Origin: an uncultured Gemmatimonadaceae bacterium
GTDB lineage: Bacteria > Gemmatimonadota > Gemmatimonadetes > Gemmatimonadales > Gemmatimonadaceae
DNA: 64,000 nt
NCBI GenBank assembly: GCA_963716745.1
Contig: OY970320.1
Location: 1,527,865-1,591,864 of the forward strand
Direction of reading: 5' to 3'
Made by a program: the position numbers and the translations under genes. The notes below the pieces were generated by a model. The model was given only the letters and a program-made list of their open reading frames with translations, was not told where the DNA came from and ran no database searches. Positions 8,785 through 43,430 of this stretch are shown piece after piece; within the stretch, counting starts at the first letter, position 1, and every line of letters begins with the position of its first letter.

Positions 8785-9966
8785 ATGTTCACGACCCCAA
8801 CCGCCGGACTCTCGCTGACCCCTTCACGCTCGGCCGCGCGCCCGCGCATCGTGCTCCTCGGCTGCTCTTTCGCCGGGCTCGAATTCCTGTTGCGGTACGC
8901 GCGGCGCACTCGTGCCTTCCGGCCGGGCGAAGTGACAGTGGTGGATCCGCGCACGAGTCATTCGTACGTTCCGCTCGCGCACGAGGTGGCGAGCGGCGCG
9001 CGCGAGGCCGCGGAGCTCGTCTTCGAGACGCCGGCGTTCGTCACCGCGCTCGGCGCTGAGTGGGTGACGAGCGGCGCGCGCTCGGTGGATCCCGCGGCGA
9101 AGACCGTACTGCTCGAGAACGGCCGCGTCCTCGCCTACGATCGCTGCATCGTGGCGGTGGGATCGGTGCCGGCGGTGCCGGCGGAACTCGACGGCAAGGC
9201 GGGCGTCATCGCCGCGAAGTGGATACCGGATGCCGCCGCGCTCAACGCGCGCCTGCACGTGCTGCGCGCGACGGGCGCGCGCATGATGCGCGTGGTGGTC
9301 GCCGGCGGCGGACTCACCGCCGTGGAGTGGAGCGCGGAGCTGGCGAGCGCGCGCGTGGAGGGCACGCGGATCGCGGTGACGCTCATCGGTTCGGAGCCCC
9401 GGCTGCTGCCGGCGTTCGCGCCGCATATCGCGCGCCGCGCGAGCCGCGCGCTGGAGTCGGTGGGCGTCGGAATGGTGTTCGGCCGCCGCGTGGCCGGCTT
9501 CGCGGGCGACCGCGCGCTGCTCGCGGACGGCGCGGCCTTCCCTGGCGACGTGCTGCTGTGGGCGGGCGGCGTACGCGCGAACCCGGTGCTCGCCGAGTTC
9601 GGCGCACCGCTCGGCGAGGACGGCCGCATCGTGGTGACGCCGCGCCTCGAGGTGAACGGGTGCGACGGACTGCACGTGATCGGCGATGCCGCGCAGATCG
9701 TGGAGGACGGGAACCCGTGGCCCACGATGCGGCGCGCGATCGAGGCGATCTGGCAGGGCGCGCTGCTCGCGCGGCGGATCGCCGGACACTATGCCGTTGG
9801 CTCCGGACCATCGCACCGCCTGCGCACCGATTTCTGGTACGGCCTCTCGCTCGGCGCGAAGAAGAGCGCCATTGTGCGTGGCGGGCGACTGGATGAACGA
9901 TCGGTGTATGTCGCGGCGCGCCGCGGGCTGCAATGGGCGTACTACCGCCGGTTCCCGGTTCGATAA
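8785..9966 (+). CDS. NAD(P)/FAD-dependent oxidoreductase, type II NADH dehydrogenase-like
   Basis: RIVLLGCSFAGLEF, VVVAGGGLTAVEWSAELA and GLHVIGDAA give a two-Rossmann pyridine-nucleotide-disulfide oxidoreductase layout. Confidence 0.65.
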   Translation: MFTTPTAGLSLTPSRSAARPRIVLLGCSFAGLEFLLRYARRTRAFRPGEVTVVDPRTSHSYVPLAHEVASGAREAAELVFETPAFVTALGAEWVTSGARSVDPAAKTVLLENGRVLAYDRCIVAVGSVPAVPAELDGKAGVIAAKWIPDAAALNARLHVLRATGARMMRVVVAGGGLTAVEWSAELASARVEGTRIAVTLIGSEPRLLPAFAPHIARRASRALESVGVGMVFGRRVAGFAGDRALLADGAAFPGDVLLWAGGVRANPVLAEFGAPLGEDGRIVVTPRLEVNGCDGLHVIGDAAQIVEDGNPWPTMRRAIEAIWQGALLARRIAGHYAVGSGPSHRLRTDFWYGLSLGAKKSAIVRGGRLDERSVYVAARRGLQWAYYRRFPVR

Positions 9967-9967
9967 G

Positions 9968-10061
9968 AACTACTTTGACAGGATTAACATGATCGACATC
10001 ATGATGGACAACGGGCGTCGTTCATCATGATGTCGATCATGTTAATCCTGTCAAAGCAGTT
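9968..10061. repeat. Family-1 palindromic element, copy A (about 38-bp arms, GACAGGATTAACATGAT core at the outer ends)
   Basis: cTTTGACAGGATTAACATGATCGACATCATGATG (9973-10006) pairs with CATCATGATGTCGATCATGTTAATCCTGTCAAAg (10023-10056). The stem extends with AACG/CGTT and flanking AAC/GTT. It lies between the ndh-like stop and the acs start. Confidence 0.85.
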
Positions 10062-10094
10062 GTCATGAATCTGGCGACGGCCCCGTCGCGCATC

Positions 10095-24408: not shown

Positions 24409-24490
24409 CATGTGAATCATGTTAATCCTGTCCAATGCTCTTCCTAGAATCCGCGATAACTGCTTTGACAGGATTAACATGATTTACATG
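24409..24490. repeat. Family-1 palindromic element, copy C (24-bp arms, 34-nt spacer, GACAGG ends facing inward)
   Basis: CATGTGAATCATGTTAATCCTGTC (24409-24432) pairs with GACAGGATTAACATGATTTACATG (24467-24490), with 1 mismatch. The spacer contains CTAGAAT. Confidence 0.85.
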
Positions 24491-30320: not shown

Positions 30321-31442
30321 GTGATCATGGCCTCGTCAGCATTTCCCTCACGCGTGGCCGTCGTGCTCGGCGGCGGCGGACTCAAGGGATTCTCGCATAT
30401 CGGCGTGCTGCGCGCGCTCAAGCAGCGCGGCATCCGGCCGTCACTCTACGCGGGCACCAGCATCGGCGCGCTCATCGCCGCCGCGCGCGCCGCCGGCATC
30501 AGCCTCGACGAGATGGAAGCGCGCGCGCGCGCGCTGCAGAAGACGGATCTCTTCCGGATCAATCATCTCGCGATGCTGCTCGAGCGCATGAAGAGCCCAT
30601 CGCTCTATCACGAAGAGCCGCTGCGCGAACTCTGCCGGCTCAACGCGCCGGCCGGCACCTTCGAAGACCTCAAAGTGCCGCTCCTCGTGAACACGGTGGA
30701 CGTCGAGCGCGGCACGCGCGTGGTCTGGGGGCTGCCCGGACTCCGCAATGTGTCGGTCGCGGATGCCATCTACGCGTCGTGCGCACTACCCGGTTTCTTC
30801 CCGCCCGGCATCATCGGTGGCCGCCCGTGCATCGACGGCGGCACGGTGGACAACCTTCCTGCCGCCATCGCCGGACTCGGCGCCGAGATGGTGATCGCCG
30901 TGGACGTCGGGACGACGAGCCTCGGCCTCGCGCGGCTCATCCGCCGCCAGGGATTCGCCGCGATCTACATGCGCGCCGCGTCGATCATGATGCACGCGCT
31001 GCAGTTGCAGCCGCTGGCCGAGTGGTCGGGGCCGCCGATGCTGCTCATCCGGCCGGACGTCGCGCATCGCGACATGTTCAGCTTCGTGCACACCGAGGAG
31101 CTGATCGAGGCGGGGTACAGCGCCACGATCGCGGCGCTCGACCAGGTGGCCGACCAGGAGCTGAAGCACGGCGTGATCTATCCGCGCCGCCGCGTGAACG
31201 TGCTCGTGGACCGCGAGAAATGCACCGGCTGCGGGATCTGCGTGTCGCTCGCGCCCGACCGGATCGTGCTCGACATGGAGAACAAGGCCGTGATCGCGAA
31301 CCCGGTGATGGAATGGAGCCCGGCGGACGGTGACTTCGTGCAGCAATGTCCGTTCGAGGCGATATCCGTGCACTCGCTGGACGGCACGCGGCGGACGACG
31401 AAGCCGATCACGCAGCCGATGGCGGTGGCAGCGGAGGACTAG
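30321..31442 (+). CDS. Patatin-like phospholipase fused to a C-terminal single-cluster ferredoxin-like domain
   Basis: GGGGLKGFSHIG (oxyanion hole), GTSIG (nucleophile elbow), DGGTVDN (catalytic Asp). The C-terminus has CTGCGICVSLAP...QQCPFEAI, i.e. CxxCxxC...CP. Confidence 0.75.
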   Translation: MIMASSAFPSRVAVVLGGGGLKGFSHIGVLRALKQRGIRPSLYAGTSIGALIAAARAAGISLDEMEARARALQKTDLFRINHLAMLLERMKSPSLYHEEPLRELCRLNAPAGTFEDLKVPLLVNTVDVERGTRVVWGLPGLRNVSVADAIYASCALPGFFPPGIIGGRPCIDGGTVDNLPAAIAGLGAEMVIAVDVGTTSLGLARLIRRQGFAAIYMRAASIMMHALQLQPLAEWSGPPMLLIRPDVAHRDMFSFVHTEELIEAGYSATIAALDQVADQELKHGVIYPRRRVNVLVDREKCTGCGICVSLAPDRIVLDMENKAVIANPVMEWSPADGDFVQQCPFEAISVHSLDGTRRTTKPITQPMAVAAED

Positions 31443-34281: not shown

Positions 34282-34296
34282 AGTCTTAACTGCAAG

Positions 34297-34398
34297 CCGG
34301 GAACCGATTGCCGGGAACCGATGAGGAACAAAAAATGATTCCCTTACGACAGGGAATAGGTGGTCATGCCTCACCGGTTCCCGGCAACCGGTTCCCGG
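34297..34398. repeat. Composite hairpin between convergent acnA and the CDP-alcohol transferase gene
   Basis: CCGGGAACCGATTGCCGGGAACCGATGAGG pairs with CCTCACCGGTTCCCGGCAACCGGTTCCCGG, with 2 mismatches. Each arm is a tandem CCGGGAACCG unit. The AT-rich 42-nt spacer has an inner 7-bp hairpin ATTCCCT/AGGGAAT. Confidence 0.75.
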
Positions 34399-34402
34399 TA
34401 GT

Positions 34403-35161
34403 TCAGCTCTTGGACTTCCCGTTCCTCGCGCGTAGCTCCGCCGCGATTACCCAGCTGCGCCACACGGCCGTTCCCACGCTCGCGGCGCCGATCACGGTCA
34501 CGGCGGCGATGAGGACCGACGACTCCGGCCAGCCGAAGTACTCGCACACCGGGTTGTCCAGCATCGACGCGATCGCGAGCAGCACGAGGCGCTCCGCGCG
34601 CTGCATCACGCCGCCCTTGCAATCCACGCCCACGGCCGCGCCCTTCGCGCGCGAGTAGCTCACCATCATCGCGCCGCCGAGCGCCACGACGGTGCTCAGC
34701 ATCGCCCAGCGGGAGGGCTCGAAGTAGAGCGCGAGTCCCATGAACACGAACATCTCCGAGAACCGGTCGATGATCGAGTCGAGGAATTCGCCGTAATCGC
34801 TCCCCACGCCACGGGCGCGCGCGACGCGGCCGTCGAGCACGTCGGCGAGTCCGCCGAGCAGCACGAAGGTGCCGCCGAGCGCGATCGCGCCCTGCGAATA
34901 CGCAACGCCGGCGGCGAGGCCCAGCGCGCCGCCGCCGAAGTTCAGCAGGTCGGGCGACACGTTCACGCGCACGAGCGCGCGTTCGACCGGGGTGATCACC
35001 CACATCAGCCAGTCGCGCACCCGAATGCCCAGCAGGAGAGTCGAGGGACGCCTCGCCACGTCGGCGTCCACCGGACGTCCGCGCGCGACGACGGCGTACA
35101 CCGGCATCGTGAGCAGGAAGGCGAACGCGAGAGAAACGGCAATGTAGGTGCTCGGCGTCAT
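34403..35161 (-). CDS. CDP-alcohol phosphatidyltransferase family protein (PIP-synthase-like)
   Basis: GGLADVLDGRVARARGVGSDYGEFLDSIIDRFSE is the D-x2-D-G-x2-A-R-x8-G-x3-D-x3-D motif. KGGVMQRAERLVLL follows. About 6 TM segments. Confidence 0.8.
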   Translation of the reverse strand: MTPSTYIAVSLAFAFLLTMPVYAVVARGRPVDADVARRPSTLLLGIRVRDWLMWVITPVERALVRVNVSPDLLNFGGGALGLAAGVAYSQGAIALGGTFVLLGGLADVLDGRVARARGVGSDYGEFLDSIIDRFSEMFVFMGLALYFEPSRWAMLSTVVALGGAMMVSYSRAKGAAVGVDCKGGVMQRAERLVLLAIASMLDNPVCEYFGWPESSVLIAAVTVIGAASVGTAVWRSWVIAAELRARNGKSKS

Positions 35162-36165
35162 GTAGAGCGACGGCGTTGAGGTCTCGTGCGAAGATAGCGG
35201 AATACGCGCGGCCAGAGGAATATGAGCGGCCAGCGACGCTCGCGCAATGTGAGTTGCACCATGGTTCCGGACCGGCGCTCTACCTTCTGGACGACGTACT
35301 CGAGCCAGTCGTCATAGAGCAGTACGTACTTCACCCAGCGGAGCGTTGCCCGGCGCTTGCTGCGCGCGAAATAGCGGACCCATGCGCGCCGTTCGCGCGC
35401 TGGAACGGGCGTCAAAAGACGGTAGACTTTTCCCTCTTTTTTGATTATCTTTAAATGCTCAAGCCGTTGCAGCAGTTCGCGATAGACCGGCGCCAGCGAC
35501 TCCCGTTGTGCGCCGGTCAGCGTTTCGATCCGGTCGGCGGTCTCGGGCCGGATCTCGGCGGCGAACGAACGCGCGAGCGACGCACGAATGTAGTCGGCGC
35601 TGTCGAAGGCGGCGGGCAGGAAGGAGAGGCTCCAATCGCTCGTGCGCGCACGGGCGGCGGCCAGCGAAGCGATCACGGCGTCCCGGTCTTCGGGCGCGGC
35701 GGTCCATGCGAGCTGGACGTGCTGGAAGAGGCGCCCCTGCGCGAAGTGGTCCTGCGCGCCCGCCGAAGTGGCGAGGGCGAGGGCCTCCCGGGAGAGCACG
35801 GCGCACTTGGCGAGAGCCGGCGGCGTGAGTTCCGGGAAGGCAATGGCGATGACGTTGGGCGCGAGCACGCGATTGAGGCGTGCGGCGCTGGAAGGTTTGA
35901 GTTTGGTGCCGCGCGAGGCGGCGAGCGCGGTGTACGCCGCATCGTAGTCTCGCACGATGATGAAGAAGTCGAACGCGCTTTCCGCTTTCGCGCCGGATCG
36001 TTGGGCGTGCGAGCCGTAGTGGATGATGGCCGAACAGGCGGTGCCGAACGACTCGGCGAGCGCTCGCGCGATGCGCGCGGCGGCGGGGTCGGGCGGTTCG
36101 AAGATGTCGGATGTGAACGCGGCGGTCGCGCCGGGCTCGGCGAGCATGGTGTCGGCGAGCGTCAC
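35158..36165 (-). CDS. Hypothetical protein, weak resemblance to Tam41/Mmp37-type nucleotidyltransferase (CTP:phosphatidate cytidylyltransferase)
   Basis: IIHYGSHAQRSGAKAESAFDFFIIVRDYD compares with the Tam41 YGSGVF.Q......DfI..V.d pattern; KCAVLS; FAQGRLFQHVQLA compares with GRLQKPV. It is 4-nt coupled on both sides. The call rests on similarity by eye only. Confidence 0.35.
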   Translation of the reverse strand: MTLADTMLAEPGATAAFTSDIFEPPDPAAARIARALAESFGTACSAIIHYGSHAQRSGAKAESAFDFFIIVRDYDAAYTALAASRGTKLKPSSAARLNRVLAPNVIAIAFPELTPPALAKCAVLSREALALATSAGAQDHFAQGRLFQHVQLAWTAAPEDRDAVIASLAAARARTSDWSLSFLPAAFDSADYIRASLARSFAAEIRPETADRIETLTGAQRESLAPVYRELLQRLEHLKIIKKEGKVYRLLTPVPARERRAWVRYFARSKRRATLRWVKYVLLYDDWLEYVVQKVERRSGTMVQLTLRERRWPLIFLWPRVFRYLRTRPQRRRST

Positions 36166-36992
36166 GCGGCAGCGCCGGAACGGATGCGCTCGAGCGTCGT
36201 CACCATGTTCGAGCGCAGCATGTCGAGGAATGCGTCGGCATCTTCGGGAGCGGGCGGTTGGAACGGGCCCGAGACGACGACGTGGATGTGGCAGTTGGCG
36301 ATGGATTCGAGGGCATCGGTGAATGTTCGGGCCCCCCAGAGTCCGTCGGCAACTATGGTATATACTGGCTGTTGTGCGTGTGTCACGATGAGGCGGGGAC
36401 CTTGCCGCATGAAGCGGCCGATCTGGCCGTCGCGTGTGCGATGACCCTCGGCGTAAATGAGCAGCGAGTTCCAGCCTTTCGCGACGCGTGAGGCGGCTTC
36501 ACTCAGTGAATCGAGATCCTGCTGGATCGCCGATGGTTTCTGCGTGATGAAGGGGAAGCGCCCCATGCGCAACGTCGGCGAGATGAACGGGATCTTCCAT
36601 TTGTAGCGGTCGCGGGTAGGAAAGAGCGGCGAGTGATCGCCGAAGAGCACCACCGCGACGGGGATGTCGAAGATGGACTGGTGGTTCATGATCGCGACGA
36701 CGGGCGCATCGGGGAGTTTCCCCTCGACCGTGATGCGAACGCCGGCCGCGTAGCGGGCGACGAAGAGCAGAGGCACGCATTGCAGGCGCAGCCAGCGCCC
36801 GTACCATCTGGCTCGGCGCTCGGGTGACGGAGCGAGCGTGAGCAGCGGCCAGACGATGAGACGCTGCACGATCGCACAGAGGCCGCAGAGGTAGGGCAGG
36901 AATATGATGAAGAAGAGCGAGCCGCGGACCGCGCGGATCGCCCGCTCCAGGCGGCTCTTCGCCCGGGGTGATGCTATCGGTACTGAAGTCAT
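36162..36992 (-). CDS. PlsC/LPLAT-family acyltransferase
   Basis: NHQSIFD (H-x4-D), YAEGHRTRDG (EG-x-R), N-terminal TM segment. Confidence 0.75.
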   Translation of the reverse strand: MTSVPIASPRAKSRLERAIRAVRGSLFFIIFLPYLCGLCAIVQRLIVWPLLTLAPSPERRARWYGRWLRLQCVPLLFVARYAAGVRITVEGKLPDAPVVAIMNHQSIFDIPVAVVLFGDHSPLFPTRDRYKWKIPFISPTLRMGRFPFITQKPSAIQQDLDSLSEAASRVAKGWNSLLIYAEGHRTRDGQIGRFMRQGPRLIVTHAQQPVYTIVADGLWGARTFTDALESIANCHIHVVVSGPFQPPAPEDADAFLDMLRSNMVTTLERIRSGAAA

Positions 36993-37020
36993 GCCGCAGT
37001 GAATAATTGGAGGTCACATC

Positions 37021-38301
37021 ATGGCGATCCGCATGGAACCGCAAACGGCGATGAACCCGCTCGACTACGACTATAGCAGTTTCTTCTATTCGTCGAGCGA
37101 CGATCCGTTCGCGATCCTCGAACCGTATAACGAATGGTACAACCGCGCCGTGCCGGAGGGCTACTACCTCTTCGGCCAGCCGATCTCGACGCCGCCCGGC
37201 GGGCACGTGATGCTCACCGAGATGCGCGACCAGAAGACGCTGCAGCTGCTCAACCTCAGCTCGTACAACTACCTCGGCCTGTCGTCGCGCGCGGAAGTGA
37301 TCGCGGCCGCGAAGGCCGCGCTCGACCAGTACGGCCTCGGCGCCGCCGGCTCGCCCATCCTCAGCGGCACGATGGATGTGCACATGCAGCTCGAGGAAGC
37401 GCTGGCCAAGTTCAAGCGGAAGGAAGCCGTCATGGTCTTCCCCACCGGTTACAGCACGAACATCGGATTGATCTCGGGCCTCATGCGCCCGGGCGATTGG
37501 GTGATCGCCGACCAGAACTCGCACGCGAGCATCGTGGACGGAGCCATCCTCTCGAAGGCGGACGTGCGCTTCTTTAGGCACAACAATCCGGTGGACCTCG
37601 AGAAGAAGCTGCAGAAGGTGAAGGGAAAGAAGGTGCTCGTCGCCATCGAAGGCGTGTACTCAATGGACGGCGATGTCTGTCCGCTCCCCGAGCTCGTGGC
37701 CGTCGCCAAGAAGTACGGCGCGCGCATCCTGCTCGACGAAGCGCACTCCGCGTTCGTGTACGGTGAGAACGGCCGCGGTGTGGCCGAGCAGTACGGGCTG
37801 GAGGACGAGGTCGACATGCACGTCGGCACGTTCTCGAAGGCGCTCGGCGGACAGGGCGGCTACGTCGCCGGTTCGAAGAATCTCTACAACTACCTGAAGG
37901 GCTTCGCGCGTTCGCGCGTGTTCTCCTGTGCGCTGTCGCCGGTGGTCGCGGCGGGCGTGCTCAAGAGTCTCGAGATCGCGCAGGCCGAGCCGCAGCTGAG
38001 AGCGCAGCTCTGGAAGAACGTGGCACATATCCGCGGCCGTCTCGAAGAGGCGGGCGTGGACATCGGCGACTCCACGTCGCAGGTGATCCCGATCATGGTG
38101 AAGAACGACCGCCGCGTGTTCGAGCTGGGGCACAAGCTCCTCCGCGCCGGCCTGTACCTGCAGCCGATCATCTATCCCGCAGTGGCAAAGCACCGGTCGC
38201 GGTTCCGGGTCTCCATCTCGGCCTCGCATACCACCGACCAGCTCGACGAGGGCGTCGCGATCCTCGTCAAGGTTCTCCGCGAAGAGGGCATTCTCGTATG
38301 A
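37021..38301 (+). CDS. Alpha-oxoamine synthase family PLP enzyme (serine palmitoyltransferase / KBL / BioF-like)
   Basis: GGAGG lies 8 nt upstream of the ATG. NLSSYNYLGLS, GYSTNIGLISGL, DEAHSAFVYGENGRG, GTFSKALGGQGGY (PLP Lys). It has an N-terminal extension of about 60 aa relative to BioF. Confidence 0.8.
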   Translation: MAIRMEPQTAMNPLDYDYSSFFYSSSDDPFAILEPYNEWYNRAVPEGYYLFGQPISTPPGGHVMLTEMRDQKTLQLLNLSSYNYLGLSSRAEVIAAAKAALDQYGLGAAGSPILSGTMDVHMQLEEALAKFKRKEAVMVFPTGYSTNIGLISGLMRPGDWVIADQNSHASIVDGAILSKADVRFFRHNNPVDLEKKLQKVKGKKVLVAIEGVYSMDGDVCPLPELVAVAKKYGARILLDEAHSAFVYGENGRGVAEQYGLEDEVDMHVGTFSKALGGQGGYVAGSKNLYNYLKGFARSRVFSCALSPVVAAGVLKSLEIAQAEPQLRAQLWKNVAHIRGRLEEAGVDIGDSTSQVIPIMVKNDRRVFELGHKLLRAGLYLQPIIYPAVAKHRSRFRVSISASHTTDQLDEGVAILVKVLREEGILV

Positions 38302-38993
38302 GCACGAGCAAAGAGGGTTACGTCCAGTATCACTACCGCAATGCCATCGGCGGTTTCTTCGAATTCCCCACGGAGAACGCGAGGGCCATCCTGCCGCCCG
38401 AGCTGCAGCCGATCGAGCCGCACCACGGCTCGAGCGTGCTCTCGGTCATGGCGTTCGACTTCACCAACAGCCCGGTGGGCGACTACGGCGAGCTGATCCT
38501 GTCGATCCTCGTCGCGCCGCGCATCGAGCCGGGGCAACCAATGCCGCGGAGCGCGTTCTACCCGTTCCGCCTCGGCACCACGACGCGTGAGTCGCGCGAG
38601 CACGCCATCGAGCGCTGGCACCTGCCGCACTACATGCAGGACATCGGCATCCGCTGGGTGCGCGGCAATGGGCACATCACCATCCATGCTACGGATCGCG
38701 GCCAGCCGATCGTCGACATGACGATCACCGAGCATGAGTGGTCGAACGTGGAGCATCGCTATCAGGCGTTCATGAACGACGAGGAGGGCGCGTACACCTC
38801 CACGATCATCATGGCGAGCCAGTTCAGCGAGAACGAGGAGGAGCGTGGCGGCATCACGATCCACTCGCAGGCGATGACCGACCTGCTCGCCGACTGGGAT
38901 GTGGACTTCAAGCCGTTCCGTGAGCTCTGGATGAAGAACGGCCTGCAGACCTTCCACCCGCTCCAGACGCTGGCGAGTTACGCGAAGCGATGA
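38298..38993 (+). CDS. Hypothetical protein (possible acetoacetate-decarboxylase-like beta-cone fold)
   Basis: 231 aa, 4-nt coupled on both sides. ARAILPPELQPIEP...VGDYGELILSILV...TTTRESREHAIERWHLPHYM loosely recalls ADC-family GRE.wG.PK. Confidence 0.3.
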   Translation: MSTSKEGYVQYHYRNAIGGFFEFPTENARAILPPELQPIEPHHGSSVLSVMAFDFTNSPVGDYGELILSILVAPRIEPGQPMPRSAFYPFRLGTTTRESREHAIERWHLPHYMQDIGIRWVRGNGHITIHATDRGQPIVDMTITEHEWSNVEHRYQAFMNDEEGAYTSTIIMASQFSENEEERGGITIHSQAMTDLLADWDVDFKPFRELWMKNGLQTFHPLQTLASYAKR

Positions 38994-39886
38994 GCGGCCG
39001 CGTCGCCGTCATCGTCAACCCCGCCTCCGGTAGGGGGCGGGGGGCGAGGACGGCGGAGCGGATCCACCGCGCATTCGCGGATGTGGGCGTCACCGACATC
39101 CGGTTCACCACGGCGCCTGGGCAGGAGCGAGAGCTCGCGGCCCAGGCGCTTCGCGATGGGGCCACGACCATCGTGGCCTGCGGCGGCGACGGCACGTGGA
39201 GCAATGCGGCGAACGCCATCGTGGCGGCGAAGAGCTCGTGCCGCCTCGCGATCGTGGCGGCCGGCACCGGCAACGATTTCGCGAAATCGCTCAAGATACC
39301 GGCCACCGACATCGAGCAGATGGCGCGACTCGCGGTGGATGGTCCCGACACGCCGATCGACGTGGGCCGCATCGAGGACCGCTACTTCCTGAACATCACG
39401 GGCTTCGGATTCGACATCGCCGTGCTCGAGGACATCGAGAGCATCTGGTGGCTGCGCGGCTACCTGCTCTACAAGTACTCCGCACTCAAGCAGCTGCTCA
39501 GCTACAAGGGGCTGATGGTGGACATCGCGAGTCCCGCCAAGCCGCGCGGCATGAAGCAGCATCTCATGGTGATCGTGGCGAACGCGCGGTATTTCGGCGG
39601 AACCTTCGTGATCGCGCCGAACGCCGATCTCGCCGACGGGAAGCTCGATCTCATCGCCATCCACGACGCGTCGCCGATCCAGCGCGCCAACTTGTTCGGC
39701 GCCGTGGGCAAGGGCACGCACATGACGCACCCCAGCGTGGATGCGGAACAGTCGTCATCGTTCACGATGCGTTTCGCCGAACCGCCGGCGTACGAGACCG
39801 ACGGCGAGTACAACCGCGCGAAGAGCGCCGTGCTCGAGATCACGACCGTGCCCCGCGCGCTGCGGCTCGTGGTGCCGGCGAAATGA
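38990..39886 (+). CDS. Lipid kinase, DAGK catalytic domain family (YegS / sphingosine-ceramide kinase-like)
   Basis: VAVIVNPASGRGRG, VACGGDGTWSNAANA (GGDGT), GTGNDFAKSL, C-terminal DGE. Confidence 0.8.
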   Translation: MSGRVAVIVNPASGRGRGARTAERIHRAFADVGVTDIRFTTAPGQERELAAQALRDGATTIVACGGDGTWSNAANAIVAAKSSCRLAIVAAGTGNDFAKSLKIPATDIEQMARLAVDGPDTPIDVGRIEDRYFLNITGFGFDIAVLEDIESIWWLRGYLLYKYSALKQLLSYKGLMVDIASPAKPRGMKQHLMVIVANARYFGGTFVIAPNADLADGKLDLIAIHDASPIQRANLFGAVGKGTHMTHPSVDAEQSSSFTMRFAEPPAYETDGEYNRAKSAVLEITTVPRALRLVVPAK

Positions 39887-41100
39887 AGGCGATCTCCTTC
39901 GCGGCGCCGATCCCGACGTACCTCGCGACGCTCGCCGCCGGCAAGATCTCCGACCGGTTCTATGTGGGCCCGTACGCCTGCACCACCTATGGCGACCGCG
40001 AAGCGCCCGCGCTGCCAAGCGACCGCTGGGTGCGGCTCCGTACGCGCATGGGCGGCATCTGCGGCAGCGACATCAACGTCGTCACGCTCGGCGCGAGTCC
40101 ATCCAATTCGCCCTTCTCGAGCTTCCCCTTCGTGCTCGGGCACGAGTTGGTGGGCGAGGTGATCGAGTGCGGTGCGGCGGTGAGCAGCGTGCGCGCGGGC
40201 GATCGTGTGGCGGCGAATCCGCTGCTCTGCTGCGAAGCGCGCGGGATCGCGCCGGTATGCGCCGCGTGCGCGGACGGGCAGCATGGGCGCTGCGTGAACT
40301 TCACGACCGGGCCGCTGCCGGCGGGCGTGCTCATCGGGACCACACGCGGGCTCGGCGGCGGCTGGGGCGAGCAGTTCGTGGCGCACGAGTCGCAGCTGCT
40401 CAAGCTCTCGCTGGACATGAAGGACGAGGACGCCGTGCTCATCGAGCCGTTCGCGTGCTCGGTGCGGGCCGTGCGCTCCAATCTGCCGGCGCCGGGCGCG
40501 CGAGTGCTGGTGATCGGCGCCGGCTCGATCGGACTGCTCACCACCGCGGCCGTTCGCGCGCTCGCGCCGGCGGCGCGCGTGACCGTGCTCGCGCGTTACG
40601 ATTTCCAGGCGGAGCACGCGACACGATTCGGCGCCGCGAACGTGATCAAGGCGCGCGGGAATTATCTCAAGGCCCTCGCCGACGTCGCGGGCACGAAGCT
40701 GCTGCAGCCGATCCTCGGCAAACCGATCGGCATCGGCGGCTTCGACATCACATTCGTGTGCGTGAGCGGCGCGCGCGGCATGGACGACGCAATGCGCTTC
40801 ACGACCGCGGGCGGCACGATCGTACTGCTCGGCAACTCGAGCACCATGCGGGGACTCGATTGGACGCCGCTGTGGGTGAAGGAACTCTCCGTGCGCGGAT
40901 CCGTGTTCCACGGAGGGCACGCGCACGCCGCGTCCGATCGCGACGATTTCCATGAGGCCGCGACGTTGATTTCTTCGGGCAAGGCCAATGTGCGCCCGTT
41001 GCTGACGCACACGTTCCCGCTCGCCGAGTACCGCGCCGCTCTCGCCGCCGCCATCGACAAGCGAGGAGAAGGCAGCGTGAAGGTGGCGTTCAAGTACTGA
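39883..41100 (+). CDS. Zn-dependent medium-chain dehydrogenase/reductase (MDR)
   Basis: GICGSDINVV, GHELVGEVIE, structural-Zn Cys cluster (CCEARGIAPVCAACADGQHGRC), VLVIGAGSIGLL. At 405 aa it is longer than Tdh. Confidence 0.8.
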   Translation: MKAISFAAPIPTYLATLAAGKISDRFYVGPYACTTYGDREAPALPSDRWVRLRTRMGGICGSDINVVTLGASPSNSPFSSFPFVLGHELVGEVIECGAAVSSVRAGDRVAANPLLCCEARGIAPVCAACADGQHGRCVNFTTGPLPAGVLIGTTRGLGGGWGEQFVAHESQLLKLSLDMKDEDAVLIEPFACSVRAVRSNLPAPGARVLVIGAGSIGLLTTAAVRALAPAARVTVLARYDFQAEHATRFGAANVIKARGNYLKALADVAGTKLLQPILGKPIGIGGFDITFVCVSGARGMDDAMRFTTAGGTIVLLGNSSTMRGLDWTPLWVKELSVRGSVFHGGHAHAASDRDDFHEAATLISSGKANVRPLLTHTFPLAEYRAALAAAIDKRGEGSVKVAFKY

Positions 41101-41110
41101 TTCGCAGTTC

Positions 41111-41188
41111 CATCATGTGAATCATGTTAATCCTGTCAACGTAGTTTTTGAAAACTACTTTGACAGGATTAACATGATTCGCATGATT
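41111..41188. repeat. Family-1 palindromic element, copy D (26-bp arms plus inner stem)
   Basis: CATGTGAATCATGTTAATCCTGTCAA (41114-41139) pairs with TTGACAGGATTAACATGATTCGCATG (41160-41185), with 1 mismatch. The inner stem is GTAGTTT-ttga-AAACTAC. Confidence 0.85.
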
Positions 41189-41254: not shown

Positions 41255-41801
41255 ATGCAGAGATCCCGTCTCCTCGCGATAGTCGCCATCGCCGCGTGCG
41301 CCGCTCGTCGCCGCGGGCCAAGCGGTCGTCGCCGACACCGGCTCCGTCGCCCCCAATTTCTCGGCGCCAGGCGCGAACATGGCCGGGCTGATCCCGTCGG
41401 TGAGTCTCGCCGCGTACAAGGGCAAGACCGTCGTGCTCGCCTTCTTCTACAAGGCGCGGACCAAGGGCTGAACGATCCAAATGGAGGCGTACCGTGATCA
41501 GTACGCCACGCTCTTCAACAACGGCAAGAATGTCGTCGTCCTCGGCATCAGCGTCGATGCCGACACCACGCTGCAAAGCTGGGCGCACGACGCCAAGTTC
41601 CCGATGACGTTCGTCAGCGACACCGGCCACGTGATCGGCTCCGCGTACGGCGTGTACAGCGAGAAGAACGCGATGGACTCGCGCGTCGTTTTCGTGATCG
41701 CGCCGAATGGCAAGATCACCTACAAAGCGCCCTTCAATGTGATGTCGGCCGACGCCTACACGACGCTCGGCAACGAGGTGAAGAAGGCGTCTGGACCATA
41801 G
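41255..41801 (+). CDS. Peroxiredoxin (AhpC/TSA-BCP-like) lipoprotein with in-frame TGA at the peroxidatic Cys position (selenocysteine candidate); also one N-terminal frame break
   Basis: The signal/lipobox MQRSRLLAIVAIAAC starts at the ATG at 41255, preceded by GGAGG. The +1 frame from about 41303 reads PLVAAGQAVVADTGSVAPNFSAPG...YKGKTVVLAFFYKARTKG-TGA-TIQMEAYRDQY...VVVLGISVD...DSRVVFVIAPNGKI. The TGA is at 41469-41471. Confidence 0.65.
41486..41507 (+). promoter_or_regulatory. SECIS-like hairpin downstream of the in-frame UGA
   Basis: GGCGTAC-cgtgatca-GTACGCC is a perfect 7-bp stem with an 8-nt loop containing GU. The stem starts 14 nt after the UGA, and the loop starts 24 nt from the U of UGA. 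Confidence 0.45.
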
Positions 41802-41813
41802 TTCATCGTGCAT

Positions 41814-41911
41814 CGCGCATCGTGCCTCGTGCATCGGCCATCGTGACCGCTTCGAGCGGTCGCGATGCCCGAATCCCCCGCCGAGGCACGATGCACGAGG
41901 CACGATGCGCG
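41814..41911. repeat. Composite hairpin downstream of the peroxiredoxin gene
   Basis: CGCGCATCGTGCCTCGTGCATCG (41814-41836) pairs perfectly with CGATGCACGAGGCACGATGCGCG (41889-41911). The arms are made of CATCGTGC-type sub-repeats. The inner hairpin is GACCGC-ttcga-GCGGTC, and a T-run lies about 20 nt downstream. Confidence 0.75.
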
Positions 41912-41974: not shown

Positions 41975-43430
41975 ATGAAGACTCCCAGTCAGCCGATGTG
42001 GGCGGTCGCACCCGATGCGCCGATGGATGCGCGCACGACGCTCATCCAGCTGTACTGGGCGGCGATCCGATCGGCGGCGCCGGCGCCCGCGTTGCGCGCG
42101 GCGCTCGACAAGATCCCGCCGGAGAAGGAGCGCCGCCGCGTCTGGATCTTCGCGGTGGGCAAGGCCGCGAACCCGATGGCGATCGCCGCGGTGGAATGGC
42201 TCAAGGAGCACGGCGCCGAGCCGGCCGGTGGCGTCATCGTCGCGCCGCGACAGGTGCCCACGCCGCATGCGAGTCTCGAGATGATCGTCGGTGACCATCC
42301 GCAGCCCGGGCTTCGTTCGCTCACGGCCGCGCGCATGATCGAGAATGACCGCGGCCAGAGTGCGCCCCGAGGACGACGCGTGGGTGCTGCTCTCCGGCGG
42401 CTCCACGAGCCTCATAGCCGCGCCGGACGCGGCGCTCAAACCAGAAGAGATGGTGCAGCTCTTCGAGTTGCTGCACGGCTCCGGTCTCGACATCGCGACG
42501 ATGAATCTCATCCGCAAACGCTTCACGCGATGGGGCGCGGGCCGTCTCGCCGCCGCGCTCAAGGCGCACAAGGTGCGCAATTTCATCATCTCGGATGTCG
42601 TGGGCGATGACCTCGCGGCGATCGGCTCCGGTCCGTGCGTCCCGGACCCGAGCACGGCGAGCCAGGTACGTTCGATCCTCGTGGCATACAAGCTTTGGGA
42701 CCTCGTGCCGATCACGCTGCGCCGCTACCTGCACGCGGTCGAACGCGATCCGGGTCTCGAGACGCCGAAGGCCGGCGATCCCGTGTTCGAGAACGTCGAG
42801 CGCCGCATCATCGCGAGCAACCGCACCGCACTCGACGCGATCGCATCGAAGGCGAAGGAGCTCGGCTACGATCCGCGCATCATGAGCACCACGCTCTCCG
42901 GCGACGCGGCTTCCGCCGGCAAGCGCGTGGCCGCGTCGCTGGCCGGCACCTGCGGGTCCGCGACGCCCACCATCGCCGGCCGCGCCGGCCGTGCGTGCCT
43001 CATCTGGGGCGGCGAGACCACGGTGGCCCTTCGCGAAGGACCGCACGGCGCTGGCGGCCGTTGTCAGGAGCTCGCGCTCTCCGCCGCGCGCGAGCTCGCG
43101 CAGGTGAAGAGCGCGCGCGGCTCCACGCTCCTCGCGTGCGGCACCAATGGCCGCGACGGCGCCACCGACGCCGCCGGCGCGGTGGTGAATCGCGAGACAT
43201 GGAACGACATCGCGCGCGCCGGACGCGATCCCGAGAAGGATCTCGCCGGACACGATTCATACCCGTCGCTCGACGCGGCCGGCGCCCTGCTCCGCACCGA
43301 TCTCACCTCCACGAACGTCATGGATGTCGTGATCGGCGTCTGCGGCCCGCCCACCGCCGAGATGATGGAGCGGAAGACACCCGGTGCGCTCGCCCGGATC
43401 TCGGGTAGCTTTAGGCGGATCACCCAGTAA
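41975..43430 (+). CDS. Glycerate 2-kinase / hydroxypyruvate reductase-like (DUF4147 + MOFRL), one frame break
   Basis: VWIFAVGKAANPMA and VGDHPQPG are in the first frame. The +1 frame carries WVLLSGGSTSL, ISDVVGDDLAAIGSGP, LIWGGETTV, GGRCQELALSAA, GTNGRDGATDAAGA. The join is near 42345. Confidence 0.75.

Follow-up and report, generated by a model that had tools for sequence, protein, structure and literature searches.

What does a bacterium make with an enzyme resembling serine palmitoyltransferase (SPT) that is encoded back to back with enzymes of phospholipid synthesis? This question is raised by seven intact open reading frames at 34403-41100 of the 64,000-nucleotide stretch of soil Gemmatimonadota DNA that we analyzed (hereafter, the window), each with a single terminal stop codon and together forming two divergent arms with 3 genes on the minus and 4 genes on the plus strand (Table 1).

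Organization and conservation of the cluster

The original prediction had described a divergent seven-gene cluster with arms starting 28 nt apart and a 4-nt overlap at every internal junction, and all of this was borne out: The reading frames are where they had been claimed to be, the named motifs occur in them, the gap between the arms has the expected length, and all five internal junctions are start/stop overlaps (ATGA four times, GTGA once). The gap contains GGAGG 6 nt 5' of the ATG of the alpha-oxoamine synthase (AOS) gene and is no longer in relatives (L001, 13 nt; L002, 27 nt), so that the promoters of both arms must presumably fall within adjoining coding sequence. Beyond the minus arm, a consensus scan found ATTCCCTGTCGTAAGGGAAT followed by CATTTTTTGT, which is a pattern match only. 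The inverted repeat beyond the plus arm has arms that are 95% complementary around a loop of 2 nt, with related copies at 9966-10063 and 24456-24472 (5 matches vs 0.04 expected), and is likely a bidirectional terminator or REP-like element ending this arm.

Table 1. Features of the cluster and its borders (window coordinates)
Feature	Position	Strand	Basis or remark
Terminator-like hairpin and T-run	34338..34357	-	immediately 3' of minus arm; consensus scan
CDP-alcohol phosphatidyltransferase, 252 aa	34403..35161	-	PF01066, 47.8 bits (cut-off 22)
Tam41/CpgC-family protein, putative CTP:lipid-phosphate cytidylyltransferase, 335 aa	35158..36165	-	fold and profile
PlsC/AGPAT-type acyltransferase, 276 aa	36162..36992	-	PF01553, 48.3 bits (cut-off 23)
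Divergent intergenic region	36993..37020	.	28 nt, GCCGCAGTGAATAATTGGAGGTCACATC
Alpha-oxoamine synthase (AOS), 426 aa	37021..38301	+	PF00155, 203.8 bits
Acetoacetate-decarboxylase (ADC)-fold protein, 231 aa	38298..38993	+	PF06314, 29.8 bits; AF2/Foldseek
DAGK_cat/YegS/BmrU soluble lipid kinase, 298 aa	38990..39886	+	PF00781, PF19279
Zn-dependent medium-chain dehydrogenase/reductase (MDR), 405 aa	39883..41100	+	PF08240, PF00107
AT-rich 37-nt inverted repeat	41112..41187	.	11 nt past MDR stop codon

Neighboring genes had been called frame-broken, as is indeed the case for a DUF4147/MOFRL gene that is split at about 42345-42610 and occurs undivided, with 491 aa, in a relative. Indel errors of long-read sequencing are a more plausible source of such breaks than gene decay, given that near-identical MAGs from the same project (L005 and L006) have interruptions within genes of the cluster.

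Enough flanking sequence was available for 51 species-representative genomes; 44 of these have the complete set in identical order, 5 have six genes (MDR absent), and 2 have four. The gene-neighborhood comparison thus found the seven genes syntenic in three phyla (Gemmatimonadota, Candidatus Eisenbacteria, and Acidobacteriota), an arrangement conserved far beyond chance, and the six-gene core was found again in L092 at only 33% identity. The AOS gene is divergently paired with the PlsC-type gene in every case, and the arms remain 13-28 nt apart across the three phyla. The best explanation is a translationally coupled, conserved, biosynthetic cluster.

The window AOS is detectably related to CqsA (209 bits in NCBIfam, 121 bits in PDB), AOS enzymes are also the starting point of CAI-1-type autoinducers and a number of natural products, and P450, radical-SAM, and ketosynthase genes adjoin relatives of the Tam41-like gene. 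The product might be a specialized or secreted lipid-like metabolite such as an alpha-hydroxyketone or aminolipid signal or antibiotic instead of a bulk membrane lipid, but we consider this very improbable: The chromosomal site is fixed throughout Gemmatimonadaceae between the housekeeping genes for aconitase and AhpC with vertical-looking inheritance, the cluster holds no transporter, regulator, or tailoring genes, and five of the seven gene products are members of core families of phospholipid enzymes.

Enzymes of the plus arm

The AOS has a conserved acidic/aromatic N-terminal extension, and its orthologues share a median identity of 79%. Its best PDB match is the Sphingobacterium SPT 3a2b (1.9e-89, 304 bits), followed by Sphingomonas SPTs (e-76 to e-74) and then Kbl (e-70, best 240 bits), and the residues aligned with SPT include H168, the D/H of LDEAHS, K273 in the PLP-lysine motif GTFSK, and an equivalent of R390. 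In a 12-sequence neighbor-joining tree, on which the original prediction had been staked, the enzyme fell outside Kbl and grouped with SPTs against Kbl and BioF at 75% bootstrap support. These comparisons suggest that it is closest to SPTs rather than to Kbl or BioF. The enzyme is below every NCBIfam equivalog cut-off, with roughly equal scores of 350-366 bits for BioF, Kbl-related, and SPT models.

The MDR carries GHE and GAGSIG motifs and belongs to the polyol-dehydrogenase/Tdh clade, with best NCBIfam scores for IolM, idonate 5-dehydrogenase, and Tdh (106-120 bits, all far under cut-offs) and best PDB matches to ketose reductase and sorbitol dehydrogenase (e-22 to e-20). It is an accessory member of the cluster because one subclade (the 5 genomes above) keeps the other six genes without it.

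Kbl and Tdh are the textbook pair of an AOS and a Zn-dependent MDR, encoded by adjacent genes in E. coli, and both families are detectable as relatives of the window proteins. The idea that AOS and MDR are a plain kbl-tdh pair for threonine degradation beside unrelated lipid genes is effectively refuted and has next to no probability left: The AOS scores 351.6 bits with NF005394 (cut-off 460) and 297 bits with TIGR01822 (cut-off 493), the MDR lies outside Tdh as had been anticipated (106-107 bits vs cut-offs of 380 and 458), and 0.4% of bootstraps unite the AOS with the Kbl of E. coli. Moreover, two genes with overlapping stop/start codons separate AOS from MDR, the MDR is lost in some genomes where the AOS stays, and the constant partner of the AOS gene is the PlsC-type gene.

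The 231-aa protein, listed as "unknown" in the original prediction, could be assigned to the ADC superfamily. Its PF06314 score equals the Pfam cut-off exactly, and the best 24 Foldseek matches of its AF2 model (pLDDT 90.6) are all members of this superfamily (TM 0.6-0.7). No invariant lysine was found among 23 orthologues from three phyla and 35 database homologues, and the invariant residues include H43, E65, R100, H102, H111, E180, E182, R208, and E209, so that the protein pairs an ADC fold with the lack of the catalytic Schiff-base lysine. Its gene is the most conserved of the cluster (median identity 81%).

Profile search confirmed the kinase as a genuine lipid kinase of the YegS/BmrU family (TIGR00147, 144.6 bits, cut-off 118.65) with a GGDG motif at residue 65; its top PDB match is S. 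aureus DgkB (2.7e-21).

The minus arm and its likeness to the Caulobacter system

The minus arm starts with the gene of an acyltransferase that has an N-terminal membrane segment and the motifs HX4D (HQSIFD, residue 104) and EGxR (EGHR, residue 182) and that scores below the curated NCBIfam equivalog cut-offs of its nearest families. The last gene encodes a transferase with the full DxxDGxxARx8GxxxDxxxD motif from residue 107, whose best NCBIfam scores, although under the respective cut-offs, are 131 bits for AIP synthase and 112 bits for PIP synthase, compared to only 22-27 bits for PssA/PgsA models. Its top PDB match is M. tuberculosis PgsA1 (1.1e-19), and the PgsA1 acceptor-pocket residues R94, S132, K135, R137, R152, R155, and R195 (PMC6506517) correspond to the same or like-charged residues in the window enzyme, a PIP-/AIP-synthase-like transferase with an intact anionic acceptor pocket.

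A single-sequence search with the 335-aa protein encoded between them gave no Pfam, NCBIfam, or PDB match; its predicted likeness to Tam41 was upheld by fold and profile. The best five Foldseek PDB matches of its AF2 model (pLDDT 86.7) are all Tam41 (7ecd at 2.6e-7, then 6ig4/6ig2), the family profile matches Tam41 of S. pombe (5.7e-11) and of Firmicutes (3.2e-8), and the Tam41 motifs YGS, D66, K120, GR145, and SYxGE/DxR align in the family, of which P0127, P0174, and P0212 have Tam41 Pfam matches. The C-terminal region is basic and amphipathic. The protein is a true Tam41 relative of the same family as CpgC-type proteins, with 27.7% identity across 300 aa to the CpgC-like protein encoded in a Caulobacter-type locus and an hhalign probability of 100% (E 3e-60) between the window and CpgC-like subfamilies; this reference is a Pseudomonas plasmid protein that is CpgC-like by synteny, not the Caulobacter sequence itself. 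Relatives have Tam41-like domains fused to PlsC (P0121, P0127, P0128, P0129, and P0133) or to a CDP-OH transferase, and lipid kinase, Tam41-like gene, and CDP-OH transferase co-occur repeatedly in unrelated contexts. Some family members are solitary or in clusters without AOS, as in L091 (ADC, PlsC, Tam41-like, and CDP-OH genes) and L093 (the trio). L091 is full of IS elements, and its lack of an AOS may be secondary.

In Caulobacter, cpgABC beside spt already combine a DAGK-type ceramide kinase, CpgC, and a CDP-alcohol transferase. Deletion of cpgC leaves ceramide phosphate and abolishes the next lipid (PMC9393093), because of which the substrate of the Tam41/CpgC family may by analogy be placed at ceramide-1-phosphate. 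An NDP-activated ceramide as CpgC product was explicitly proposed by Olea-Ozuna et al. 2024 (PMC11324152), and papers of 2025-26 still call the step from ceramide-1-phosphate onward "unidentified". The window kinase and CDP-OH transferase differ from CpgB and CpgA in being non-orthologous (kinase vs a CpgB-like kinase of a Caulobacter-type locus: weak, 30% over 115 aa), and Caulobacter-type bCerS/CerR/ACP genes are absent from cluster and flanks, as had been predicted.

The two arms could instead be linked yet chemically separate modules, which we regard as unlikely though worth weighing. The minus arm would then make a glycerolipid, with less probability than not proceeding from phosphatidic acid (PlsC) over CDP-diacylglycerol (Tam41-like) to phosphatidylinositol phosphate (PIPS-like), and the plus arm a sphingoid base or the phosphate of such a base; any connection between the arms would depend on an enzyme encoded elsewhere, such as an AUR1-like inositol-phosphoceramide synthase as in Bacteroides, and would involve no CDP-ceramide, again an unlikely course. 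Characterized Tam41 proteins make CDP-diacylglycerol (PMC7018664), as used by the solved relatives closest to the transferase, the kinase is nearest to DgkB, inositol reaches Bacteroides ceramide by transfer from PI-DAG (PMC9246714), and L091 and L093 have Tam41-like gene sets without AOS. However, the CpgC branch acts genetically after ceramide phosphate, the arms stay back to back in three phyla, housekeeping PlsC and CdsA would be duplicated without evident reason, the cluster contains no AUR1-like gene, and the IS-riddled L091 is an ambiguous witness.

A candidate route to a CDP-activated ceramide

Bacteria normally own housekeeping PlsC, CdsA, and PgsA, so that a dedicated second set of PlsC, CTP-activating, and transferase enzymes would favor a non-glycerol substrate. 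We lean towards a phosphosphingolipid-type membrane lipid as product, made by a variant of the CDP-diacylglycerol (Kennedy) pathway for sphingoid substrates. The route that we somewhat prefer leads from a long-chain base via reduction, phosphorylation, and acylation to a CDP-activated ceramide-type lipid and on to head-group transfer. Condensation of serine and a long-chain acyl thioester by the SPT-like AOS would give a 3-keto long-chain base, whose 3-keto group the MDR may reduce; since the MDR gene is absent from one subclade, this step would be accessory or replaceable. The DAGK-type kinase would phosphorylate the C1 hydroxyl, and the PlsC-type acyltransferase would acylate the amino group to give ceramide-1-phosphate, acting either on the base-1-phosphate (an analogue of lysophosphatidic acid) or ahead of phosphorylation, although no enzyme of the PlsC family is known to be a ceramide synthase. 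The Tam41/CpgC-family enzyme would then use CTP to form CDP-activated ceramide, from which the PIP-synthase-like transferase would pass ceramide-phosphate to an anionic alcohol, for which inositol phosphate is the most likely candidate, with the lysine-less ADC-fold protein as a conserved partner.

Several observations count against a sphingolipid. PlsC-type, Tam41-like, and PIPS-like enzymes are classically glycerolipid enzymes and the kinase is nearest to DAG kinases; AOS, CDP-OH transferase, and acyltransferase are all under equivalog cut-offs; the SPT placement comes from 12 sequences at 75% support; kinase and CDP-OH transferase are not orthologues of CpgB and CpgA, with a CpgC-like reference defined by synteny; AOS-free or solitary Tam41-like family members exist; and no inositol-phosphate synthase was found in the 64-kb window or relatives' flanks.

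The alternative of a glycerophospholipid bearing a novel amino-alcohol as head group appears improbable. A Kbl-like AOS using short acyl-CoA and the MDR would, doubtfully, yield a small amino-alcohol or amino-polyol for phosphorylation by the kinase, and it is no likelier that the PIPS-like transferase couples this product to CDP-diacylglycerol from the PlsC and Tam41-like enzymes. The even NCBIfam scores of the AOS would agree with this, as would an MDR clade acting on small 2-amino-3-hydroxy or polyol substrates and a transferase pocket that fits a phosphorylated soluble alcohol. On the other hand, DAGK_cat/YegS-family kinases act on lipids rather than small molecules, PDB ranking and tree clearly place the AOS closer to SPTs than to Kbl, the MDR is dispensable, and the CpgC link indicates a sphingolipid substrate.

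The original prediction of a sphingo- or amino-phospholipid pathway thus holds for gene families and synteny, and gene content, motifs, and folds are likewise demonstrated; substrates, step order, liponucleotide intermediate, and head group are what we infer from them. Its claim of an undescribed route holds for the cluster variant itself but not for the concept, since the cpgABC trio and the NDP-ceramide proposal already exist for Caulobacter. With the sphingoid Kennedy-type pathway as preferred reading, the seven genes appear to represent a way of making a sphingolipid-type membrane phospholipid that has not been studied before, and they suggest how a step in bacterial sphingolipid synthesis that is still unsolved might work.

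Layout and conservation of the divergent cluster

The cluster comprises two divergent arms that encode a CDP-alcohol (CDP-OH) transferase, a 335-aa protein and a PlsC-type acyltransferase on the minus strand and an alpha-oxoamine synthase (AOS; 426 aa), a 231-aa protein, a DAGK-type kinase and a Zn-MDR on the plus strand. All seven open reading frames of the original prediction were found where it had placed them, with one terminal stop codon each; the five internal junctions are 4-nt overlaps as it described (ATGA in four cases and GTGA in one), the arms are indeed 28 nt apart, and all motifs that it named are present in the proteins. Profile searches in Pfam and NCBIfam upheld six of the seven gene assignments, namely the CDP-alcohol phosphatidyltransferase, the PlsC-type acyltransferase, the AOS-type class-II aminotransferase, the ADC-family protein of 231 aa (PF06314, 29.8 bits, a score exactly equal to the Pfam cut-off), the YegS/BmrU-type kinase and the Zn-MDR. 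Since the gap between the arms measures 28 nt here and 13 nt in the related locus L001, both promoters must sit inside the coding sequence of the opposite arm; a consensus sigma-70 scan found no promoter-like site in the divergent region itself. A GGAGG is located 6 nt 5' of the AOS start codon.

The window comes from a Gemmatimonadaceae bacterium, and contigs with homologues of the 335-aa protein carry the same genes in the same order. A locus scan with one genome per species and a narrow alignment query, whose reach is mostly Gemmatimonadota, returned 80 loci, most of them from Gemmatimonadaceae (the closest genomes being Microflora-Danica-type MAGs) and the remainder from Longimicrobiaceae, Ca. 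Eisenbacteria, Vicinamibacterales, Solibacteraceae and one MAG labelled Acidimicrobiia. Another carrier of the cluster is the MAG L011, labelled G. aurantiaca. Gene content was then determined by tblastn with the seven window proteins in the 51 genomes with enough flanking sequence, and the synteny expected by the original prediction was found in 44 of them, with all seven genes in order. Five genomes lack the MDR alone, and the other two (L069 and L071, both Gemmatimonadota) keep the genes for the Tam41-like 335-aa protein, the transferase, the kinase and the MDR, with a 555-aa ORF in place of the acyltransferase, AOS and ADC-fold genes. Because this ORF, which has no match in Pfam or NCBIfam, substitutes for the whole block, PlsC, AOS and ADC-fold protein together suggest one replaceable "backbone" module. 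Conservation is highest for the ADC-fold protein (median identity 81%) and the AOS (79%) and lowest for the PlsC-type enzyme (43%), and a six-gene version was found in locus L092 with a marker protein identity of just 33%. A search of the neighborhoods for additional genes conserved between phyla brought up just the seven genes with their shadow ORFs. The conservation of the cluster is far above chance.

Several repeats and hairpins surround the cluster. The MDR stop codon is closely followed by an AT-rich inverted repeat of 37 nt, whose arms are 95% complementary around a 2-nt loop. It has related copies elsewhere in the window, where its core motif is matched five times against 0.04 expected, and it resembles a palindromic element of the REP/MITE kind or a family of bidirectional terminators in this genome. 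More long hairpins lie on both sides of the cluster, one of them between the aconitase and CDP-OH transferase genes with a terminator-like site in it. In Rfam, the region gave just sub-threshold miRNA-precursor-like matches on the long hairpins, and we dismissed a miRNA reading of these as chance resemblance to the hairpin shape. The aconitase gene is adjoined by a gene for a patatin-like phospholipase fused to a 4Fe-4S ferredoxin domain, and this pair is also kept in the related genome L002. A glycerate-kinase-like DUF4147/MOFRL gene is split into two overlapping frames in the window; L002 has it as one gene of 491 aa, and in the near-identical MAGs L005 and L006 even genes of the lipid cluster are interrupted, so that the broken frames of the window probably reflect indel errors of long reads and not pseudogenes.

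Coordinates of the cluster, its flanking features and related loci
Feature	Sequence	Position	Strand
Seven-gene cluster	window	34403-41100	
335-aa Tam41/CpgC-family protein	window	35158-36165	-
231-aa ADC-fold protein	window	38298-38993	+
Divergent intergenic region (28 nt)	window	36993-37020	
Divergent intergenic region (13 nt)	L001	9130-9142	
N-terminal extension of the AOS (residues 1-47)	window	37021-37160	
AT-rich inverted repeat	window	41112-41187	
Related copies of the inverted repeat	window	9966-9982/10047-10063 and 24456-24472	
Hairpin region between aconitase and CDP-OH transferase genes	window	34290-34405	
Terminator-like site in this region	window	34338-34357	
Further long hairpin	window	41801-41910	
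DUF4147/MOFRL gene, split near 42345-42610	window	41975-43430	
Patatin-like phospholipase/ferredoxin fusion	window	30321-31442	
555-aa ORF (equivalent place in L071)	L069	8011-9678	-
ADC-fold gene divergent from PlsC-Tam41like-CDPOH	L091	8424-12989	
Region of the 1152-aa fusion	L093	195-8631	
Caulobacter-type sphingolipid locus on IncP plasmid pPNP1 (L086; Pseudomonas sp. JS425, activated sludge)	NZ_CP073662.1	about 65.7-86.1 kb	

The 335-aa protein and its kinship with Tam41 and CpgC

As a single sequence, the 335-aa protein has no Pfam match even at E<=10, and NCBIfam and PDB gave nothing useful. The Foldseek search proposed in the original prediction, run with an AF2 model (pLDDT 86.7) against PDB, nevertheless placed Tam41 structures on top (the top five matches, E 2.6e-7 to 4.6e-5, TMt 0.58-0.65), and the modeled fold of a nucleotidyltransferase domain, a winged-helix/helical domain and a basic C-terminal region is Tam41/Mmp37-like. 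A profile built from 88 diverse family members matches S. pombe Tam41 (5.7e-11) and one Tam41 from Firmicutes (3.2e-8), with which the motifs YGS ... D, K, GR and SYxG(D/E)xR align; G51, S52, D66, K120 and R145 are invariant among these 88 members, and R206 is nearly so. Some family members, namely P0127 (29 bits, cut-off 24), P0174 and P0212, even match PF09139 directly. Because the 335-aa protein misses this Pfam model while its family members and their profile match, it is a distant Tam41 relative that lies outside the model as drawn. Compared with Tam41/Mmp37, the mitochondrial and Firmicutes CDP-diacylglycerol synthase, it shares the fold, the basic C-terminus and the active-site motifs, but identity is just 10-14% and the window protein is found in sphingolipid-type clusters. 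Given this context and the position of its CpgC relatives after ceramide phosphate, its lipid substrate is probably not phosphatidic acid.

The family is large, with about 1100 representative clusters at 50% identity (E<=1e-3), and includes fusions to PlsC-type acyltransferases, a CDP-alcohol transferase, cytochrome P450 and an IspD-like cytidylyltransferase. Contexts without an AOS gene also occur. In L091, from a lineage at 39% identity, an ADC-fold gene is divergent from the acyltransferase, Tam41-like and CDP-OH transferase genes, followed by an Exo_endo_phos gene in a region rich in IS elements; the Exo_endo_phos family takes in sphingomyelinases and inositol-phosphate phosphatases. On the metagenome contig L093, a distant family member of 1152 aa joins an N-terminal part of no assigned family, a Tam41-like domain and cytochrome P450. 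Its neighbors are genes for a DAGK-type kinase, a CDP-OH transferase and a PEMT-type methyltransferase as well as two B12-radical-SAM genes, another lipid cluster around the trio of kinase, Tam41-like protein and CDP-OH transferase.

A tblastn search of plasmids found a homologue of the 335-aa protein on the Pseudomonas plasmid pPNP1, where it adjoins a DAGK-type kinase within a complete Caulobacter-type sphingolipid locus. This locus encodes Spt, an ACP, an epimerase-type (CerR-like) reductase, a fatty acyl-AMP ligase, CpgB- and CpgC-like proteins and a CpgA-like CDP-alcohol transferase as well as LptF/G paralogues, a metallophosphoesterase, two cytidylyltransferases and an ABC transporter, in agreement with the CC_1152-1168 set described in PMC11324152. 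The complete locus is carried by an IncP plasmid, has IS5 copies on both sides and adjoins a class 1 integron; the capacity for sphingolipid synthesis thus appears to move horizontally. Using the plasmid protein as CpgC reference, which is named CpgC-like from synteny and is not the Caulobacter sequence (CCNA_01219 / CC_1161), BLASTP aligned the 335-aa protein with 27.7% identity over 300 aa (E 3e-24), and hhalign joined the window-type and CpgC-type subfamily profiles end to end (probability 100%, E 3e-60, 308 columns). The CpgC-type profile by itself still finds Tam41 (2.9e-5). By this full-length homology, the 335-aa protein is assigned to the CpgC family, and in both the window type and the Caulobacter type its gene is clustered with those for an SPT-type enzyme (SPT, serine palmitoyltransferase), a CDP-alcohol transferase and a lipid kinase of the DAGK type.

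[quoted passage not shown] Olea-Ozuna et al. later noted an InterPro CDP-DAG-synthase signature on CpgC and proposed NDP-activated ceramide as a possible product (PMC11324152). In a JBC paper of 2025 and a preprint of 2026, CpgC is still said to convert ceramide-1-phosphate "via an unidentified mechanism". Like the Caulobacter crescentus spt-cpgC-cpgB-cpgA genes (CC_1159-1162 = CCNA_01217-01220; ceramide phosphoglycerate/CPG2), the window cluster encodes an SPT-type AOS, a DAGK_cat kinase, a CpgC-family (Tam41-like) protein and a CDP-alcohol phosphatidyltransferase. Unlike the Caulobacter locus, however, it lacks a GNAT-type bCerS, an epimerase-type CerR and a dedicated ACP or acyl-ACP synthetase, as well as the CpgD-type cytidylyltransferase, the metallophosphoesterase and the LptF/G paralogues; the PlsC-type acyltransferase, the ADC-fold protein and the Zn-MDR are present instead. 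The difference from the bCerS/CerR set that the original prediction had pointed out extends to the surroundings: No GNAT or NAD-epimerase gene, as expected for the bCerS and CerR of a Caulobacter/Bacteroides-type ceramide pathway, was found in the cluster, within +/-10 kb of it in three relatives, or among the scanned ORFs of the 64-kb window.

Enzymes of the putative lipid backbone

The best PDB match of the AOS is the Sphingobacterium SPT (1.9e-89), and the ranking of solved structures runs from SPTs, including those of Sphingomonas, at 304, 260 and 253 bits to Kbl (240), ALAS (231) and BioF (181). The catalytic His, Asp/His and PLP-Lys are present and aligned with SPT; the nearest relative, Sphingobacterium multivorum SPT (about 40% identity), shares with the window enzyme the absence of an equivalent of R378 of the Sphingomonas enzyme. 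For the phylogeny called for by the original prediction, we built an NJ tree (500 bootstraps) with a small reference set (the Spt of the plasmid, three SPTs of solved structure, and Kbl and BioF from E. coli), in which the AOS clade of the cluster is monophyletic (100%) and falls on the SPT side, against Kbl and BioF, in 75% of bootstraps. No SPT equivalog model was reached (SerpalmtaseCFB 360.9/640, BetaP 350.1/500 and AlphaP 295.3/670 bits). Judged from these comparisons, the AOS appears nearer to the characterized SPTs than to Kbl, BioF, ALAS or CqsA.

A plain kbl-tdh pair, named beforehand as one outcome that would speak against the predicted lipid pathway, was rejected. The AOS misses the Kbl models (351.6/460 and 297/493 bits) and joins Kbl of E. 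coli in just 0.4% of the bootstraps, the MDR belongs to the polyol-DH/Tdh clade yet is no Tdh (107/380 and 106/458 bits in the Tdh models), and two other genes lie between them. The N-terminal extension of the AOS carries a conserved acidic/aromatic motif, DYDYSSFFYSSSDDPF, that the solved SPTs lack and that persists from Gemmatimonadota through to Vicinamibacterales and Longimicrobiaceae; this segment could serve docking or membrane association.

The second Foldseek search proposed in the original prediction, run with the 231-aa protein, pointed to an ADC beta-cone fold for the model, as each of the top 24 matches was an ADC-superfamily chain (TM 0.6-0.7). All characterized members of this superfamily owe their chemistry to a Schiff-base lysine. 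The 231-aa protein resembles ADC, MppR and Sbi00515 in its predicted fold and borderline Pfam match, but neither 23 orthologues nor 35 database homologues revealed an invariant or near-invariant lysine, so it cannot use the Schiff-base chemistry of ADC, and a canonical ADC enzyme role was rejected. Instead, a different set of His, Glu and Arg residues is invariant in its family, which suggests a function differing from that of ADC.

The PlsC-type enzyme matches PF01553 with 48.3 bits against a cut-off of 23, has both the HX4D (HQSIFD) and EGxR (EGHR) motifs, and falls short of the 1-acyl-G3P acyltransferase subfamily model (29.5 bits against 102.95).

A predicted route through an activated lipid

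The kinase matches PF00781, PF19279 and TIGR00147 (144.6 bits against 118.65), has GGDG at residue 65 and is closest to DgkB. It is of the ordinary YegS/BmrU type, in contrast to the divergent CpgB type represented by the plasmid kinase (25.7 bits in TIGR00147), with which it shares just 30% identity over 115 aa (E 1.7e-5). Orthology to CpgB, which was also considered, therefore appears doubtful. The CDP-OH transferase matches PF01066 with 47.8 bits against a cut-off of 22, has a complete metal-binding motif (DxxDGxxARx8GxxxDxxxD from residue 107) and is closest to mycobacterial PIP synthases. Its best matches among solved structures and NCBIfam models are PIPS (M. tuberculosis PgsA1, Renibacterium PIPS) and archaetidylinositol-phosphate synthase, although it remains below the equivalog cut-offs for PIP and AIP synthases (111.8 bits against 170 and 131.4 against 180), has an extra N-terminal segment, and has a Tam41-like enzyme in place of CdsA as its partner. 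All seven pocket positions listed for PgsA1 (R94, S132, K135, R137, R152, R155 and R195; PMC6506517) align with the same or a like-charged residue; this is suggestive of a conserved inositol-phosphate pocket and not specific, because the first sulfate site is common to all solved CDP-alcohol transferases (PMC6506517). Orthology to CpgA was rejected, as BLASTP gave no alignment with the CpgA-like protein of pPNP1. Given this and the other differences from the Caulobacter locus, the head group is probably another than that of Caulobacter.

A sphingoid pathway has its weak points: We saw no inositol-phosphate synthase or PIP phosphatase gene near the cluster, several of the proteins miss their equivalog cut-offs, Tam41-like family members occur in contexts without an AOS, and the CpgC reference is a plasmid orthologue. 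In the main rival explanation, the minus arm would do no more than produce PI(P), starting from glycerolipid precursors. This rival is opposed by the CpgC relatives of the Tam41-like protein, which act after ceramide phosphate.

The simplest reading that uses every gene, and to us the most likely one from the combined sequence comparisons, is a sphingoid counterpart to the CDP-diacylglycerol pathway, in which the AOS would synthesize a sphingoid base, the MDR would reduce the ketone, the kinase would phosphorylate, the PlsC-type enzyme would N-acylate, the Tam41/CpgC-like enzyme would activate with CTP and the PIPS-like enzyme would transfer the head group. Frequent fusions of PlsC-type and Tam41-like proteins suggest that the product of the acyltransferase is the substrate of the cytidylyltransferase. 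PlsC enzymes usually act on a lyso-lipid phosphate, and we therefore favor the base-1-phosphate as the putative acylated species. Lipid kinase, Tam41-like gene and CDP-OH transferase recur together in unrelated contexts, and this supports a predicted generic order from lipid alcohol via lipid phosphate and CDP-lipid to head group. As in the inositol-sphingolipid pathway of Bacteroides, the end product may be inositol phosphoceramide, but there an AUR1-like synthase moves inositol phosphate from PI-DAG to dihydroceramide (PMC9246714), whereas the window cluster has no AUR1-like gene and its logic points to activation on the ceramide side.

For the CpgC/Tam41-like family as a whole, we tentatively propose, with a confidence that stays somewhat short of even, that its members are CTP:ceramide-1-phosphate (or sphingoid-base-phosphate-derived) cytidylyltransferases making CDP-ceramide, a liponucleotide that to our knowledge has never been observed. 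The cluster lends independent comparative support to the CDP-ceramide-like route of the original prediction; as a hypothesis, this route is not without precedent because NDP-activated ceramide had already been proposed for CpgC (PMC11324152). In the literature searched, we found no use of the term "CDP-ceramide", no prior description of the cluster, nothing relevant on sphingolipids, ceramide or unusual polar lipids in Gemmatimonadetes, and no report of sphingolipid-type lipids in Gemmatimonadota, Eisenbacteria or Acidobacteriota.

The cluster is best classed as real, widely conserved and belonging with the bacterial phosphosphingolipid clusters. Bacterial sphingolipid synthesis was elucidated just recently, and one of its steps is still open. 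The value of the cluster is that it links CpgC to Tam41 chemistry: Since the family is large, related to Tam41 and repeatedly fused or coupled to PlsC-type acyltransferases, lipid kinases and CDP-alcohol transferases, the vague proposal of NDP-ceramide becomes a directly testable mechanism. The cluster further predicts that the major soil phyla Gemmatimonadota, Eisenbacteria and Acidobacteriota contain sphingolipid-type lipids, whose synthesis would involve an acyltransferase and a reductase of non-canonical kinds as well as an ADC-fold protein. Gemmatimonadota, Eisenbacteria and Vicinamibacterales are abundant soil groups with few cultures. If the proposal of CDP-ceramide is true, the cluster would be a complete sphingolipid mirror of the CDP-diacylglycerol pathway, in which a PlsC-type enzyme would provide a third solution to the N-acylation of ceramide and might act on sphinganine-1-phosphate as a mimic of lysophosphatidate; the "unidentified mechanism" step of Caulobacter CPG synthesis would be solved, and these three groups would make phosphosphingolipids by a route unrelated to the known ceramide synthases.
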